A stretch of 42,566 nt of DNA. Origin: a virus. Its lineage: Duplodnaviria > Heunggongvirae > Uroviricota > Caudoviricetes. This document shows positions 1-33,210 of the stretch, in pieces. Location of the stretch: the IMG/VR virus record IMGVR_UViG_2529292882_000014, positions 1 through 42,566 of that record. The stretch is one strand, 5' to 3'. Made by a program: the position numbers and the translations under genes. Below the pieces are notes generated by a model. That model was not told the DNA's origin. It saw only the letters and a program-made list of their open reading frames with translations, and did no database searches. How positions within the stretch are numbered: the stretch's first letter is position 1; each line of letters opens with the position of its first letter.

Positions 1-1158
1 ATGCTCACCGTTAAGCAGATTGAAGCAGCAAAGCCGAAAGAAAAACCATACCGCCTACTCGATGGTAATGGCCTGTACCTTTATGTCCCTGTGTCAGGGA
101 AAAAGGTATGGCAGCTTCGCTACAAGATTGACGGTAAGGAGAAAATCCTGACCGTCGGAAAATATCCGCTTATGACTTTGCAAGAGGCAAGGGATAAAGC
201 ATGGACTGCGAGGAAAGACATCTCGGTTGGCATCGATCCGGTAAAGGCGAAAAAGGCTTCGTCTAACAACAATTCCTTTAGCGCCATTTACAAGGAATGG
301 TACGAGCACAAGAAGCAAGTCTGGTCAGTAGGCTATGCAAATGAACTTGCAAAAATGTTTGATGACGACATTTTACCCATCATCGGCGGTCTTGAAATTC
401 AGGATATTGAGCCGATGCAACTACTGGAAGTAATCCGCAGATTTGAAGATCGCGGTGCAATGGAGCGAGCAAATAAAGCCCGCAGAAGATGCGGCGAGGT
501 TTTCCGTTACGCTATTGTCACTGGTAGGGCTAAATATAACCCGGCACCTGACCTTGCTGACGCCATGAAGGGATACCGCAAGAAGAACTTCCCGTTTCTT
601 CCTGCAGACCAGATCCCTGCATTCAACAAAGCACTGGCAACATTTTCAGGGAGCATCGTATCGCTCATTGCGACTAAAGTTTTGCGCTACACAGCCCTAA
701 GAACGAAAGAGCTTCGCTCCATGCTATGGAAGAACGTCGATTTTGAAAACAGGATTATCACCATCGACGCCAGTGTGATGAAGGGTCGAAAAATTCATGT
801 GGTTCCTATGTCAGACCAGGTGATTGAACTTCTCACTACGCTAAGCTCAATCACTAAACCAGTGTCAGAGTTTGTTTTTGCCGGGCGCAACGATAAGAAG
901 AAGCCAATTTGCGAGAACGCTGTACTGCTTGTGATCAAACAAATCGGCTATGAAGGTCTGGAAAGCGGTCACGGATTCAGGCATGAATTCAGCACGATTA
1001 TGAACGAGCACGAATGGCCTGCTGACGCTATTGAAGTGCAACTGGCACATGCCAACGGCGGATCTGTGCGCGGGATTTACAACCACGCTCAGTATCTCGA
1101 TAAGCGCAGAGAAATGATGCAGTGGTGGGCGGATTGGCTTGATGAAAAGGTGAAGTGA
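1..1158 (+). CDS. int: Tyrosine integrase, P4/IntS type
   Basis: 385 aa; N-terminus MLTVKQIEAAKPKEKPYRLLDGNGLYLYV typical of P4-family integrases; C-terminal catalytic region with HGFRH and terminal Y-containing motif. Confidence 0.9.
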   Translation: MLTVKQIEAAKPKEKPYRLLDGNGLYLYVPVSGKKVWQLRYKIDGKEKILTVGKYPLMTLQEARDKAWTARKDISVGIDPVKAKKASSNNNSFSAIYKEWYEHKKQVWSVGYANELAKMFDDDILPIIGGLEIQDIEPMQLLEVIRRFEDRGAMERANKARRRCGEVFRYAIVTGRAKYNPAPDLADAMKGYRKKNFPFLPADQIPAFNKALATFSGSIVSLIATKVLRYTALRTKELRSMLWKNVDFENRIITIDASVMKGRKIHVVPMSDQVIELLTTLSSITKPVSEFVFAGRNDKKKPICENAVLLVIKQIGYEGLESGHGFRHEFSTIMNEHEWPADAIEVQLAHANGGSVRGIYNHAQYLDKRREMMQWWADWLDEKVK

Positions 1159-1190
1159 TCAGCCTCAACCACAATCGAATAGCGCAAAGC

Positions 1191-1220
1191 CTTGCAATCC
1201 AGTGCAAGACTTTGTTTTTC
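1191..1220 (+). terminator. Putative rho-independent terminator downstream of int
   Basis: Stem CTTGCA / TGCAAG with 6-nt loop, followed by ACTTTGTTTTTC. Confidence 0.4.
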
Positions 1221-1535
1221 TAAGTTTTTCTCACATCACCGCACAATAATCAAACTAACCATAACACTCTTCGTTGATAATGACCTGACGGATATCATCA
1301 TGTACGTGACTGAGATTGGAGCAATAAGGCTCTTGTCGATTGACACACTATCTTCAACTAGTTCTGCTGCTGGAGATAGAAGCCCATAGTGCACTTACGA
1401 TAAAATACTGTGCGAGAACACAATATAATCATAGTAAAAATCAGATCAACTTCAAAACACGCTGCTTATCCATTGATCAACAGAATCATGCTGTTAAAAT
1501 TAATCCTATTACTACACTTAACTTAGGTATCTTTA

Positions 1536-2576
1536 ATGTCTATAAGAAATGGAAATCGTCTAGAATTCCTAGACTCTTTGCGTGGACTTGCAGCCCTGAT
1601 GGTTGCATGTGCACATTTCATAGAGCGAACACCATTGCATAACAGTTTTTTATTTAAGCATGTTAACTTTGGTCAGGTTGGTGTTGTTTGCTTCTTTGTG
1701 TTAAGTGGCATGGTAATACCTTACAGCCTAAAGGAAGGGAAAAGAGCGATATCCGGGTTCATTATATCAAGGTTTTTTAGACTATATCCCGCTTACTGGT
1801 TTTCAGTATTTCTGGCGGCCTTTACTTTTTTGTTTGTAACTCATAGACCACTTGATATAAGAACTCTGTTGTCTAATATTACCATGCTTCAATCTTTACT
1901 GAGATCTCCAGATATGTTTGGTGTTTATTGGACGCTAATAATTGAGTTGTTCTTCTATGCTTCCTGTGCGTTTCTTTTCAAAGTAAATTTATTAAAGAGT
2001 AAGGTTTCTTTATTTTTAATTTCTATAGGACTTATTGCAACCGCTCTTGCTTTCTCATACGTGAGATTCGTTCTTGATAAAAAAGTTCCTGTGGCAATAC
2101 CGCTAGCTATGTCATTAATGTTCTTTGGTAGCTTATGGCGTTCAGTGAGCATTGGGATTGCATCGAGATCAGAAAGAAATATGTGCATTGTATTTTTAAT
2201 AACATTCCTAGTGGCGATTGCTCCGATTTGCTTAATGTCCTACAATAAAGACTATGGGCATGGGGAAAATGCTTCCTCCTATATTGCTAGCTATCTTACA
2301 GGCATAGTATTGACGCTATTGCTCACTACACGGGTAAAATTGAATGTAGGATTATTGGTTTTCCTGGGATCGATAAGTTACTCTGTATACTTGATTCACC
2401 CATTCTTTTTAGAGATTGTATCTGTCAGTATAGACATGGACACAGATTTTAATTTTATTATTTTTGTTTTATACCTATTAGCTACGATCGCACTAGCAAC
2501 TATTTCTTATAAGGTAATTGAAAAACCATCTATAAATATAGGTCACAGGCTTAGGAAGATCGCACTAGCAAGCTGA
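1536..2576 (+). CDS. Acyltransferase family 3 (AT3) integral membrane protein, Oac-like O-antigen acetyltransferase candidate
   Basis: 346 aa, multiple hydrophobic segments; N-terminal motif RLEFLDSLRGLAALMVACAHF typical of AT3 acyltransferases; about 33% GC, adjacent to int and tailspike as in serotype-converting phages. Confidence 0.8.
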   Translation: MSIRNGNRLEFLDSLRGLAALMVACAHFIERTPLHNSFLFKHVNFGQVGVVCFFVLSGMVIPYSLKEGKRAISGFIISRFFRLYPAYWFSVFLAAFTFLFVTHRPLDIRTLLSNITMLQSLLRSPDMFGVYWTLIIELFFYASCAFLFKVNLLKSKVSLFLISIGLIATALAFSYVRFVLDKKVPVAIPLAMSLMFFGSLWRSVSIGIASRSERNMCIVFLITFLVAIAPICLMSYNKDYGHGENASSYIASYLTGIVLTLLLTTRVKLNVGLLVFLGSISYSVYLIHPFFLEIVSVSIDMDTDFNFIIFVLYLLATIALATISYKVIEKPSINIGHRLRKIALAS

Positions 2577-2739
2577 CATATGACATGAATCCCCAGCTTA
2601 GTTCTGGGGATATTTTCTGGTTATATAATACAATCCGAACTTACACCGAGAGCAAAAATCAATTATATAAGCATACTGTATCATTCATATTACTTTTACG
2701 CTAGGCTCAAGTATCCAATGATCAATAACAGACAAAAAA

Positions 2740-2759
2740 TACTGTATGTGTATACAGAG
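2740..2759. promoter_or_regulatory. LexA (SOS) box-like palindrome
   Basis: TACTGTATGTGTATACAGAG matches the CTGT-N8-ACAG SOS box pattern with an AT-rich spacer. Confidence 0.35.
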
Positions 2760-2905
2760 TCAGTGATATTTTTTCTGCTGCTCAATGAGCATTTCCGATC
2801 TTCCCACTTCTAAATTTATCCTCATGATGTTATTATCATTAAATTTATTTTAGGGGTAGTCACATGAGATATATTGCATTGTTTTTCTTTGCTCTTTCAC
2901 TGTAG

Positions 2906-3184
2906 ATGAATTGGACAATAAAAATGATAAAGTATAGAGCTGGTATAGATGGTTTAAGAGCAGTCGCTGTTGTGATGTTTCACGCTTTCCCAAGCGCATT
3001 TTCTGGAGAGTTCAATGGGTTTGATTTATTTTTCATAATATCTAGCCTTTTAATTTCAAGTATTATTTTTAAAAATTTAAATAGCGGTAAATTTTCTTTT
3101 TCCGATTTTTACTTAAGAAGGATTAAGCGGATTTTTACACTCTTACTCAGATCATATATAAGATTAGATTGCAAGTCTAGTTAG
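2906..3184 (+). pseudogene. Truncated N-terminal fragment of a second AT3 (OafA/OatA-like) acyltransferase
   Basis: 92-aa ORF with the AT3 N-terminal signature (GIDGLRAVAVVMFHAF ... FYLRRIKRIF) ending prematurely; the transmembrane core is absent. Confidence 0.5.
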
Positions 3185-3268
3185 TGGTTGGCTGAATAAT
3201 TTTCTCAATTCGTTGATTTGAAGCGTAAATATATTTTTAACCTTAAACCTTATTAAAAGGAAAATGCA

Positions 3269-3964
3269 ATGAAGTCAAAACAAACAAATAGAAAGTCTCA
3301 AGCAAATAAATATTTGGCAATGCTGTTTATTCTGATTGCAATAGTTATTATAGTATTGTCTGTTCGTTCAATTAGAAATTATTTATCTCAAAAAAAAGTT
3401 AACGACTTTCAGGCTGTGATGCTAGATTTTAAAAAAATGAATGCTAATCAAGCTGACGGCGACATTGTGGTTTATGGCGACTCGCTCATACAAGGAATGT
3501 CACCATATGGGTTAAACTTTAAATATGTTAATATGGGGGTCGGAGGATACTCTATACATCAGATCCTAACTCTATCAGAAAATTATGGGGCGTCTGGATA
3601 TAAAGCTGCGATAATTGAAGGTGGAGTTAACGATGCGATGGGTGCGAAAACCGAAGAGGAAATATTTGATGATTATGACAAACTGCTTAAGAGTGTATCA
3701 AAGGTTGATAATATTTATGCATTAAAAGTTTTGCCAATCATAAGCGGGGCAAGAAAAGACGTAGACCATGTCAATTCAAGAATAAGCATGATTAACTCTA
3801 TTATTGATAGAACATGTAGTCGCATAGTTAACTGCAATATAATAGAAGTTCCTGCAGATTTTTTATCTGATAAAAAATCTGAATTGTACTTTGATGATGG
3901 AGTGCATTTAAATAAAAATGGCTATGCCGTTTGGATGAGAGAGATTAATAAACATGTGAAGTAA
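3269..3964 (+). CDS. Membrane-anchored SGNH/GDSL hydrolase-fold protein
   Basis: 231 aa; one N-terminal TM helix (LAMLFILIAIVIIVLSV); SGNH blocks VVYGDSLIQG (I), NMGVGGYS (II), EGGVNDA (III), DDGVHLNKNGY (V); SD AAGGAAA upstream. Confidence 0.75.
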   Translation: MKSKQTNRKSQANKYLAMLFILIAIVIIVLSVRSIRNYLSQKKVNDFQAVMLDFKKMNANQADGDIVVYGDSLIQGMSPYGLNFKYVNMGVGGYSIHQILTLSENYGASGYKAAIIEGGVNDAMGAKTEEEIFDDYDKLLKSVSKVDNIYALKVLPIISGARKDVDHVNSRISMINSIIDRTCSRIVNCNIIEVPADFLSDKKSELYFDDGVHLNKNGYAVWMREINKHVK

Positions 3965-3969
3965 AAGAT

Positions 3970-3990
3970 GGCCGCATTGCGGCCTTTTTC
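3970..3990. terminator. Bidirectional rho-independent terminator between the convergent SGNH gene and tailspike
   Basis: GGCCGCATTGCGGCC hairpin followed by TTTTT on the plus strand and a T-run on the minus strand. Confidence 0.5.
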
Positions 3991-6227
3991 TACCAGGAAG
4001 CATCAATGTAAAATATTGGTGAGGCTGTAGTAGATCCATTAATTGTTATCGACCCGGTTGATGCGCTTATTGTTGCCATCGCCATACCGTAAGATATTCC
4101 ATCAGCAGTGAACGGTACAGGGACATTTTTTGTTACTGTTGGTCTACACCACCTTGGCAGCGTTAGAACAGTATTACCATTCGCAAATGAAGTGGCTGCC
4201 AGTTTAATATTAATTGAATTGGCAGTTAAACTTGACGGTGCCTGTACTGTTACGTTTGTTCCAGCCCACCATTGAACAGCTGCTCTTGGCGTGTAATCAA
4301 CACGCGACCACCAGTCGATAATGGCAGAGCAGATAATTTCCGCATACAGACGATACCCTAACTGGCTTTGGTGAATGTCATCACGCAGAAGTGGGTCGTA
4401 TTGCGTATTGAAATACTCTGGATATGGGGCCGGGAGCTGGTGAGTTGTTGTTACACAAATGACGTTATTGCCATATTTCATCATCTGGCGTTTACCAGCT
4501 TCTCGCAACTCTGCGACACCGTCGTAGTTAGAAGATGGCTGGCCAGCCCCTCCAATAAATGACTGGCTATACCACATCCACGGCTCAACCCAAACAGGGA
4601 TACGACCAAGGCCATTGCAATATAAGACAAACTCATCTATCAATGACGCCATATAATCGCCGTTTTGGTTTGCCTGCCCTTCGTTAGTTCCGGCAACCAT
4701 AATAACGATGTAAGCATCACCCGGCCCCTGAGCCTTCAGGAGATCTAACTGTTGCCTCATTGTCTGTCCGGCAACTGCCTTGTTTACAATGCTATGTGAA
4801 CGGTGGCCGTTCGCTCCATCCATTAATTGCGGAATGTACGAGCTGAACGCGGAAATGAAATCCTCAGCTGTACTATCACCGTGGATAAGGATATTAAGTG
4901 GAGGCTTACCGTGCACGCCATTATCAGAGGTGTAGCTGCATAATCCAGTTACACGCGCAGAACCTCCAGATGCCGTGGTCAGTGCAACAAACCCAACTTC
5001 GTATACATCCCCTACATCAGCAGTATCAAAGGGCAAACGTATCCCAACGCCATTCATCGTTATCTGCGCCCAGTTTTTACCTTGCAGTGATACGCCAACG
5101 GTTGCTTTGCCCGGGGCGTACGACAGTAAACCTCCTGGCAGCGGGAATGGAGTTCCTTCTGCTACTGGACCACCAATTGGTTTCTGTCTATAAGACCACT
5201 GTGTAGCACCTGGTGCCCCATAGAACATCATCCAACCACCAGAGCATCGCAGAACAATCCCAACTTCTGAGGCGGCCTGAGATTCCATACGAATATGTGC
5301 AGAAATATGCTCTCCAATATCTATTGGTGCGAACAGGCCTGTTGTACGGTTAGTAGTTAAGGGGAAGATAGCTGCGCTATCTGAGGATATGGTGACTTCA
5401 CCTTCATAGAAGAACGTGTCACCATTTATGGAATAAACTTTACAATCTGACCATTCCACTCGCTTCATGCGAATAGGGTTTCGGTTGAGGATAGCCTGCT
5501 TAGCCAGGTAATCCACTTCCCCACCGGTTGCTTTAAAGTTCAGGTGCGTAAATTCAAACGTACCCTCCCCCTCGTACTGCAACGATTTAAACAGTGAGTA
5601 CAGATCACTGTCGAATCTCAGGGTGACATTTTTATCAATGATTACTTTACTGTTCGCAAGGAAAGAAGCGTTAGCAGCTGTAGACGGTACGGTGTACACC
5701 ATCTGATTTTTTGAATGATTAGAGAAGTAAACATACCCGTAGGTCGCAACACTATCGCGCCATGCCTGGACTACGTTAGAATTAACATAGCTTGGGATTT
5801 TTGTGATCGAATGCAAAACAAGGTCTTCCTGTGAGATAGCTCCATTTACCAGATTAACACCGCCTTGAGATGCAAGATCTTGCCTGAGTTGGTCAGGGTC
5901 ATACTTCAACACATTCGGAAAATAGAACTGCTGCGAACCATACGCATCATAAACAGCCATAGAATGCCCTTGCACAGTTACGAACTTGGCAATTTGTCCG
6001 TTATATACCGGATATCCAGCAGCGTTAATGATGATTGGTTGCGAAACAGGAACGTGAGAACCGTCTTCGTTCTCCACATAAACCTGAATCTGGTTTTCAG
6101 GATTTACCGGGTCAGTGTCAATTTTACCGATATAAATTTTTCCATTGGCAACCGCTTTAAAAGAACGCGCCATAGTGAAGAGTTGCGAAGGCATCGATAC
6201 GATCACATTGGCTGTAATGTCTGTCAT
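3990..6227 (-). CDS. Tailspike protein with P22-type head-binding N-terminal domain and an internal SGNH-esterase-like motif set
   Basis: 745 aa; first ~110 aa ([58 protein letters not shown]...) closely resemble P22 gp9 N-terminus; later [20 protein letters not shown] and [10 protein letters not shown] resemble SGNH blocks I, III and V. Confidence 0.9.
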
Positions 6228-32559: not shown

Positions 32560-33210
32560 ATGAAAACTCAATTGATGGGAGAGCGCATTCGCGCTCGGAG
32601 AAAAGAACTCAAGATCAGGCAGGCCGCACTTGGAAAGATGGTCGGCGTGTCTAATGTTGCCATATCTCAGTGGGAACGCTCTGAGACAGAGCCAAATGGA
32701 GAGAATCTTCTCGCCCTGGCTAATGCGTTGAAGTGTTCCCCTGACTATCTGATGAAAGGAGAGGAAAGTCTTTCAAACATTGCCTATCACAGTAGGCATG
32801 ATCCAAGAGGGTCATACCCTCTGATTAGCTGGGTGAGCGCAGGATGCTGGATGGAAGCTGTAGAACCATATCATAAGCGTGCAATAGATAACTGGTACGA
32901 TACAACCGTAGACTGTTCAGAAGATTCGTTTTGGTTGGACGTGAAGGGAGACTCAATGACGGCTCCGGCCGGTCTCAGTATCCCTGAAGGAATGATAATA
33001 CTCGTCGATCCTGAAGTAGAGCCGCGTAACGGGAAACTGGTAGTTGCAAAGCTCGAAGGAGAAAACGAGGCAACTTTCAAGAAGTTAGTTATTGATGCAG
33101 GCAGGAAGTTTCTAAAACCACTTAACCCACAATATCCGATGATCGAGATCAACGGAAACTGCAAAATCATCGGCGTAGTTGTCGATGCAAAACTAGCAAA
33201 CCTTCCATAA
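32560..33210 (+). CDS. c2: C2 repressor (lambda CI-like, LexA-type autocleaving)
   Basis: 216 aa; N-terminal HTH (QAALGKMVGVSNVAISQWERSE), C-terminal peptidase S24 domain (GDSM ... K). Confidence 0.9.
   Translation: MKTQLMGERIRARRKELKIRQAALGKMVGVSNVAISQWERSETEPNGENLLALANALKCSPDYLMKGEESLSNIAYHSRHDPRGSYPLISWVSAGCWMEAVEPYHKRAIDNWYDTTVDCSEDSFWLDVKGDSMTAPAGLSIPEGMIILVDPEVEPRNGKLVVAKLEGENEATFKKLVIDAGRKFLKPLNPQYPMIEINGNCKIIGVVVDAKLANLP

Follow-up and report, generated by a model that had tools for sequence, protein, structure and literature searches.

An orphan LexA box, very probably of humD-type descent, beside decayed O-antigen-modifying cargo in a P22-like prophage of Escherichia coli

P22-like phages carry lysogenic-conversion cargo between the integrase and tailspike genes, as exemplified by oac of Sf6 and gtrABC of P22. 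To our knowledge, cargo of this oac/gtrABC type is not described as LexA-controlled. LexA operators are associated with genes of the UmuD/HumD type, and McLenigan and co-workers are said to have found in 1999 that HumD is a functional UmuD' homologue. The phage P1 record (GenBank AF234172) annotates a 'LexA binding site in the regulatory region of lxr and humD' located 20 bp upstream of humD, and its annotators treat the divergent lxr as LexA-regulated. In Salmonella, the umuD box resides 15 bp upstream of the start codon and has a heterology index of 4.38 (PMC8072944). The E. coli uvrA-ssb region offers a precedent for a box shared by divergent genes, in which the SOS dependence of the distal promoter is weak and was long disputed (PMC9505508). 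Full-text literature searches revealed no paper that connects SOS boxes with O-acetyltransferase or esterase genes of prophages. The LexA operators of umuD and humD are already well known; an orphan copy of such an operator in a P22-like prophage is an addition.

The window, as used here, is the whole stretch of DNA that was analysed (42,566 nt). It represents a P22-like (Lederbergvirus) prophage of E. coli, inserted at the tRNA-Arg gene argW beside yfdC. The first 8 kb matches P22-like phages in the integrase and tailspike/ant parts, and the box region is 99.9-100% identical in just 3 of 5426 complete E. coli genomes. The left end opens with intS (1-1158, plus strand). The first cargo unit is an intact gene for a 346-aa AT3 acyltransferase (1536-2576, plus strand; Pfam Acyl_transf_3, E = 2e-30; RefSeq WP_001317235.1), after which an intrinsic terminator-like hairpin (2589-2611, plus strand) separates the AT3 gene from the box region. 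The box itself is contained in an unannotated stretch (2577-3268). Farther right is a convergent tailspike gene (3990-6227, minus strand), the product of which combines a P22 head-binding N-terminus with a weak SGNH/GDSL esterase-like domain (Pfam, E = 1.4e-3). At the nucleotide level, the tailspike gene is 71-78% identical to those of XJ55 (locus L003), L007 and L101, and esterase-type tailspikes and O-acetylation cargo seem to co-travel. A C2-type repressor with HTH and Peptidase_S24 domains is encoded at 32560-33210, and through it prophage induction has its own SOS link.

The sequence TACTGTATGTGTATACAGAG at 2740-2759 is a 20-nt imperfect palindrome with the core CTGT-N8-ACAG (CTGT at 2742-2745, spacer ATGTGTAT, ACAG at 2754-2757), exactly as read in the first-pass annotation. 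On a symmetrised weight matrix of 30 E. coli LexA operators, the box scores 18.0 bits and ranks about 17th of 30 among the real operators by leave-one-out scoring. The matrix check proposed for the site thus returns a mid-range value for a real operator that is rare against background (p = 4.8e-7 per position), and the runner-up in the window reaches 13.2 bits. This second site (TGATGTTTTTACATCCAGCG, 13406-13425) is inside a structural-gene ORF and is probably a chance match. The heterology index of the box, calculated on this matrix, is about 6.6-7.8; in E. coli K-12, known LexA binders have an index of about 7.3 and non-binders of about 22 (PMC12527982). Positive controls for the matrix include the annotated LexA site of phage P1 (GenBank), which scores 24.1 bits, and, in the related loci, the boxes that precede umuD/humD genes by 15-20 bp, which score 20.6-26.4 bits. 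Judged by its score and by its descent from the operators of SOS genes, the 2740-2759 site is a genuine E. coli-type LexA operator sequence, to which LexA probably still binds.

Relatives of the region include diverged homologues of an SGNH esterase gene that is truncated in the window (46-73% amino-acid identity) and the contigs that carry them. The conservation in related prophages that the earlier reading proposed to check is found in these diverged loci, where boxes occur at the matching position. The distance from the start of the box to the SGNH start codon is 124 nt in the window, 123 nt in XJ55, 117 nt in L007, 113 nt in L015 and L016, and 98 nt in L019. The aligned box of XJ55 (TGCTGTATGCATGCACAGTC, 123 nt upstream of the esterase start codon) scores 14.5 bits, that of L007 13.8 bits, those of L015 and L016 25.3 bits and that of L019 25.2 bits. 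In a four-way alignment, the CTGT and ACA columns form the main conserved island and the flanks are barely alignable. Boxes are also noted about 510 nt upstream of the esterase genes of L009 and L012-L014, beside truncated humD starts, and are absent from the AT3-SGNH operons of L010 and L011. Broader searches add little to this set: a search of genome contigs with the XJ55 esterase protein detects no relatives, the pattern ATTTCCGATCTTCNNNCTTC gives 78 chance matches from unrelated phyla in genome contigs, pattern scans of viral and metagenome contigs detect only near-identical copies of the window or XJ55 type, and the intergenic DNA has no match in the phage collection.

The gene to which such a box belongs is apparent from the loci in which it is intact. 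In ten related loci, the box is 15-20 bp upstream of a divergent umuD-type gene, mostly of the HumD family. In L008, L019, L101-L105 and L109 (the last an E. coli chromosome locus), the box precedes a divergent S24 gene by 17-20 bp, and the product of that gene starts with MGFPSPA..., the sequence of a pre-cleaved UmuD'. In phages Huey and P1, the box is likewise located 15-20 bp before the start codon of an S24 gene of the HumD/UmuD family. The proteins of L105, L101 and L008 score 207-231 bits against the NCBIfam model NF051876 ('HumD family', a translesion DNA polymerase equivalog; cut-off 120), and along its whole length the L105 protein shares 64% identity with P1 HumD. A variant is observed in L015 and L016, in which a 101-aa ORF without a family match takes the divergent position and a Y-family polymerase gene comes after it. 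Since the box is 15-20 bp from the start codon of the umuD/humD-type gene in the relatives, as in P1 humD and Salmonella umuD, it is the operator of that gene. No HumD-like coding remnant is detected beside the 2740 box, either by tblastn or by six-frame reading of 2577-2760. As humD is absent here and present at homologous loci, the 2740-2759 site would be a descendant, and not a working member, of the humD/umuD operators. Descent from a humD-type operator is very probable, and the control region that flanks the 2740 box is homologous to the humD-linked regions of L008, L101 and XJ55 (1948).

The window also carries what reads as a second, more eroded copy of the humD/cargo control region (1242-1500). 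This copy includes a humD pseudogene remnant of the N-terminal ~48 codons (1242-1385, minus strand; 37.5% identity to L105 HumD by tblastn, E = 2e-8; matched also by L105 and L104 in blastn), a decayed humD-type LexA box upstream of the intact AT3 gene (TACTGTGCGAGAACACAATA, 1406-1425; 8.9 bits, the third best score in the window) and a candidate promoter for the AT3 gene (1473-1500, plus strand; TTGATC-16-TAAAAT with an extended TG, TGtTAAAAT) that is of the same type as the one beyond the 2740 box. The humD remnant, decayed box and AT3 promoter align with regions of L008, XJ55, L009 and L101, and the decayed box aligns with the intact boxes of L008, XJ55 (1948), L009 and L101.

The box coincides with the boundary of homology in many genomes. 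A humD query (L105 3600-4300) finds matches in 174 of 5426 E. coli genomes, including chromosomal prophages and P1-like plasmids, in which homology ends at query positions 301-335, the box being 292-311; homology thus ends at the box or no more than about 25 bp beyond it. From these alignments, the LexA box appears to belong to the humD module. At mosaic junctions, conservation repeatedly ends with the box, and this provides a testable hint on how cargo modules are exchanged: conserved LexA boxes could serve as recombination joints for cargo-module swapping. Further arrangements are seen at related loci. Prophage umuDC-like operons with boxes of 24.5 and 26.4 bits occur in XJ55 (L003 1-2016) and L009 (2562-3512), each with a second box about 496 bp away that is beside a humD-like start (MGFPSPAAD...) fused to or placed before an unrelated ORF, and the homology between XJ55 and L009 ends exactly at this second box. 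In XJ55, an IS5-family ISKpn26 element (L003 3531-4715) is located between the AT3 gene and the box-SGNH unit, an arrangement shared with the metagenome contig L098. In a different prophage, an 86-aa gene of unknown family has a near-consensus LexA box (TACTGTACATATATACAGTA, L007 7268-7287; 26.6 bits) about 20 bp upstream.

To the right of the box, the window retains a series of decayed cargo genes. The block at 2735-2905 (plus strand) is homologous, at ~77% identity by blastn and alignment, to the 5' control region and first codons of the XJ55 SGNH esterase gene. Within it, 2773-2899 has 77% identity by blastn to the upstream region and first codons of the gene for this secreted 227-aa esterase, and the homology of the window to XJ55 stops at the 5' edge of the box. 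The relic ORF at 2864-2905 (plus strand) encodes MRYIALFFFALSL and then a stop; it comprises the first 13 codons (the signal peptide) of an XJ55-type SGNH esterase gene and aligns with the intact XJ55 gene (L003 5092-5775). This 13-codon ORF was considered as a leader peptide and rejected, as it is the truncated signal peptide of the SGNH esterase. The next element is a pseudogene (2906-3184, plus strand; homologous start codon at 2924; Pfam Acyl_transf_3, E = 2e-4), a remnant of 87-92 codons from the N-terminus of an OafA-like AT3-SGNH protein, with 45% identity to the N-terminus of the 638-aa L011 protein. Comparison with L101 locates a 1.67-kb internal deletion near 3130-3135: window 2916-3135 corresponds to L101 693-922, and window 3130-5864 to L101 2593-5329. 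In L101, a 660-aa OafA-like gene is followed by an esterase that is 76% identical to the 231-aa esterase of the window. RefSeq annotates nothing in 2906-3268.

The SGNH gene is cut to 13 codons and the OafA-like gene is internally deleted; thus, the first intact gene after the box is that of the 231-aa SGNH/GDSL esterase with an N-terminal membrane anchor (3269-3964, plus strand; Pfam Lipase_GDSL_2, E = 9e-14; RefSeq WP_000837697.1). Homologues of this esterase adjoin humD and the box in L101, L104 and L105. The possibility that the 231-aa protein is the C-terminal half of the deleted OafA-like gene was rejected, as the protein is encoded by a separate gene, as in L101, and belongs to the stand-alone SGNH family. 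From the box, it is 104 nt to the 13-codon relic and 509 nt to the first intact gene, and no strong terminator is detected between the box and 3269. The first-pass annotation had placed the box in a non-coding gap between two acyltransferase units; the DNA is indeed unannotated, but the second unit is decayed and consists of the remnant OafA-like gene and the separate SGNH esterase gene.

A candidate rightward promoter for this cargo is recognized by hexamer scan at 2808-2836 (plus strand), with the -35 hexamer TTCTAA (2808-2813), a 17-nt spacer and the extended -10 element TGtTATTAT (2828-2836). An extended -10 of the form TGTTAnnAT is located 66-68 nt after the box in six regions (both of the window, both of XJ55, L008 and L101) and 61 nt after the box in L007. 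The candidate -35 hexamer is 47-48 nt after the box, and 48 nt in the window. The box-promoter spacing is constant within 1 nt between AT3-type and SGNH-type regions, in which the intervening sequence scarcely aligns, and this constancy could reflect a functional coupling. A (T/G)ATCAA block is conserved 17-22 nt after the box. Given the candidate promoter at 2808-2836, the centre of the box is about 92 nt upstream of the predicted cargo start. No rightward promoter-like pair overlaps 2740-2759 in a scan of the window, the flanking hexamers being AAAATA and AGTCAG. A weak leftward promoter-like pair (2736-2763, minus strand; CTGACT-16-TATTTT, 8 of 12 matches in the hexamer scan) has the box core as its spacer; it is possibly a remnant of the humD promoter and has no gene downstream. 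Among the promoter-like pairs overlapping the box in L019 and L105, the best is predicted, by scan and sequence reading, to point to the cargo. The hexamer scan assigns no humD promoter and no cargo promoter over the box, since it returns different candidates from one locus to the next. Between the box and the -35 element is the 13-mer ATTTCCGATCTTC (2791-2803), which contains a Dam site (GATC) and is identical in the otherwise 77%-identical XJ55 region. Dam-dependent phase variation is a property of gtr operons, and ATTTCCGATCTTC might be regulatory, for example in phase variation of this Dam-dependent type.

The scores of the boxes differ with the state of the adjacent humD gene. Boxes with an intact umuD-type gene (n = 10) score 20.6-26.4 bits, those beside truncated or decayed humD remnants 22.9, 22.2, 20.9, 19.8 and 8.9 bits, and those without a humD remnant (n = 3) 18.0 (window), 14.5 (XJ55) and 13.8 bits (L007). 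The difference between the intact-umuD-linked (n = 10) and humD-less (n = 3) boxes has a Mann-Whitney p of 0.0035, in a humD-less sample that is small and comprises three orphan boxes, two of them possibly of common ancestry. The boxes of the window and XJ55 are identical at 13 of 20 positions, not exceeding the ~77% identity of the flank. These comparisons point to a relaxation of constraint on orphan boxes after humD loss. All three humD-less copies keep the box at the same distance from the cargo gene, and the 2740-2759 box may be under selection, since it is still a good operator. Also at odds with relaxed constraint is L108 (2480-3430; E. coli KBN10P04869, near dacD), a prophage remnant in which a good box of 20.9 bits persists after an IS3-truncated humD start; an intact GDSL esterase gene is located 151 bp downstream, with an acyltransferase gene after it. 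The IS3 truncation of humD in L108 is probably recent, and a 98-bp match of this locus recurs in many genomes.

Several readings of the box are to be weighed on this evidence. That the palindrome arose by chance, or binds another protein and is unrelated to LexA, is barely credible. The first-pass annotation had cautioned that a single site could be chance, a caution that holds for the bare CTGT-N8-ACAG pattern, which is at chance level in the window (1 observed against 0.55 expected, with at least one in 46 of 100 shuffles; not significant), and a random 5-Mb genome would be expected to contain about 2.4 sites of such a score. The caution does not extend to the full 20-mer, for which only 0.02 sites are expected in the window and which can be aligned with equivalently placed boxes of several diverged loci; moreover, the flanking promoter region is homologous to regions with boxes of 20.6-26.4 bits beside humD/umuD genes, and P1 carries its annotated LexA site in the same layout. 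The box could, instead, be a working operator of the cargo, in which LexA at 2740-2759 represses rightward transcription of the relic ORFs and the esterase gene (3269-3964), such that an O-antigen esterase is raised upon DNA damage or prophage induction. This is unlikely. In its favour, the operator is of good quality, the box-cargo distance is constant in the humD-less loci, the box is kept in the IS3-truncated L108, its spacing to the cargo promoter is conserved, and in L019 a rightward promoter-like pair (TTAATA-16-TATTAT, 9 of 12 matches) spans the box. Precedents for a shared box are also available in the P1 lxr/humD annotation and in uvrA/ssb, where ssb is modestly SOS-inducible (PMC9505508). 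Against it, the window has no rightward promoter-like pair over the box and the conserved candidate promoter begins 48 nt beyond, Salmonella boxes far from the start codon are associated with LexA-independent behaviour (PMC8072944), the orphan boxes score below the humD-linked ones, and the AT3-SGNH operons of L010 and L011 do without any box. A weak SOS effect on the rightward promoter is conceivable.

The same conserved geometry admits a broader reading, in which a constant 47-48 nt joins the LexA box and the extended -10 promoter into one divergent cassette that places O-antigen acetylation enzymes under SOS control. This generalization is doubtful. It would cover P22-like and other enterobacterial prophages and, if true, the SGNH esterase of the window would be switched on at induction; a conceivable purpose would be that remodelled O-acetyl groups on the lipopolysaccharide of the dying cell keep progeny phage from being trapped on debris, and the tailspike of that progeny carries an esterase-like domain. 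A further and quite improbable reading is that the remnant of the humD promoter drives a leftward transcript, non-coding or antisense and induced by SOS, that would head for the terminator and the AT3 3' end. The promoter-like pair CTGACT-16-TATTTT has the box exactly in its spacer (8 of 12 matches), and leftward is the working direction of the ancestral operator. Yet the hexamers of the pair are weak, the counterpart here of the relatives' conserved TTGATA is TTGAGC, at 20 nt from the box as opposed to 17 in the relatives, no plausible ORF or Rfam match supports a product (an Rfam search of 1100-4100 detects no RNA family), and the copies available are near-identical only, so that comparative support is absent. 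A minus-strand SOS-induced toxin of the TisB/DinQ kind, encoded by a 28-codon ORF (MIQYAYIIDF...), was also considered and rejected, as the ORF lacks a ribosome-binding site, does not encode a hydrophobic helix and is not conserved.

The preferred reading is that the box is a vestige of humD regulation. In Salmonella, the boxes of LexA-dependent genes are about 22 bp away from the start codon and frequently cover the transcription start, and boxes at about 59 bp are associated with LexA-independent behaviour (PMC8072944). In the window, the box overlaps neither the predicted core promoter nor the predicted transcription start of the rightward cargo. Since the box is about 50 bp upstream of the cargo promoter, it probably no longer confers SOS control on the cargo. 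The earlier proposal that the box ties the downstream module to the SOS response and prophage induction is not borne out: the box is a humD operator by descent, the candidate promoter is 48 nt away and induction has the C2-type repressor. We therefore lean toward the view that 2740-2759 is regulatorily vestigial, and the genes that follow it are probably no longer placed under SOS control by it.

The ancestral layout, as seen in related enterobacterial prophages, would have been a control region of ~110 bp flanked by divergent units. One of these, a gene of the HumD family known from phage P1, with a product that resembles pre-cleaved UmuD', would be repressed by LexA until DNA damage, as suggested by a start codon 15-20 bp from the box. 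Opposite it, at 47-48 nt past the box, a sigma-70 promoter of the extended -10 type would drive cargo for lysogenic conversion, in the form of AT3 acyltransferases, OafA-like fusions or SGNH esterases that alter O-antigen acetylation. In the window, recombination is proposed to have kept the box and the cargo promoter and to have removed the humD side. The promoter is followed by the SGNH gene that was originally behind it, now a 13-codon relic, and then by the internally deleted OafA-like gene and the intact SGNH esterase gene. The predicted promoter (2808-2836) probably transcribes through the relics into the esterase gene. With its centre about 92 nt from the predicted start and nothing left to repress, the box would be an orphan or decoy LexA site that is predicted to have little or no effect downstream.

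This reading bears on annotation. The cargo of the window should not be annotated as SOS-regulated on the strength of the 2740-2759 box. Scans of prophages for LexA boxes, including heterology-index classifiers (PMC12527982), can catch high-scoring orphan operators that control nothing; the position of the box relative to a promoter and to an intact gene needs to be checked in such scans. The layout of humD, LexA box, extended -10 promoter and O-antigen-modifying cargo is recurrent in several prophage loci of E. coli, Enterobacter and Citrobacter, and no description of it was found in the papers searched.

Compared to known systems, the locus resembles humD-lxr of P1. The 20-bp LexA box is of the same kind (TACTGTATAAATGAACAGTA in P1, 24.1 bits), and the relatives of the window have the box 17-20 bp from a HumD family gene with a divergent gene opposite. 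Unlike in P1, the 2740 box of the window is without humD and keeps only the opposite half of the control region, O-antigen-modifying cargo takes the place of lxr as divergent partner, and the host element is a P22-like prophage at argW/yfdC and not the P1 plasmid prophage. The umuDC operators of E. coli and Salmonella share the CTGT-N8-ACAG core, and precede the start codon of an S24-family SOS gene by ~15 bp; by contrast, the box of the window has no attached polymerase or UmuD gene and is lower-scoring (18.0 bits). Similarly to uvrA-ssb of E. coli, a single box is present in a divergent intergenic region, near one promoter and distal to the other, but both partners are intact in uvrA-ssb, whereas here one is deleted and the other truncated. 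The order of intS, cargo and convergent tailspike gene in the window, with O-antigen acetylation enzymes as the cargo, conforms to the cargo slot of P22-like phages.
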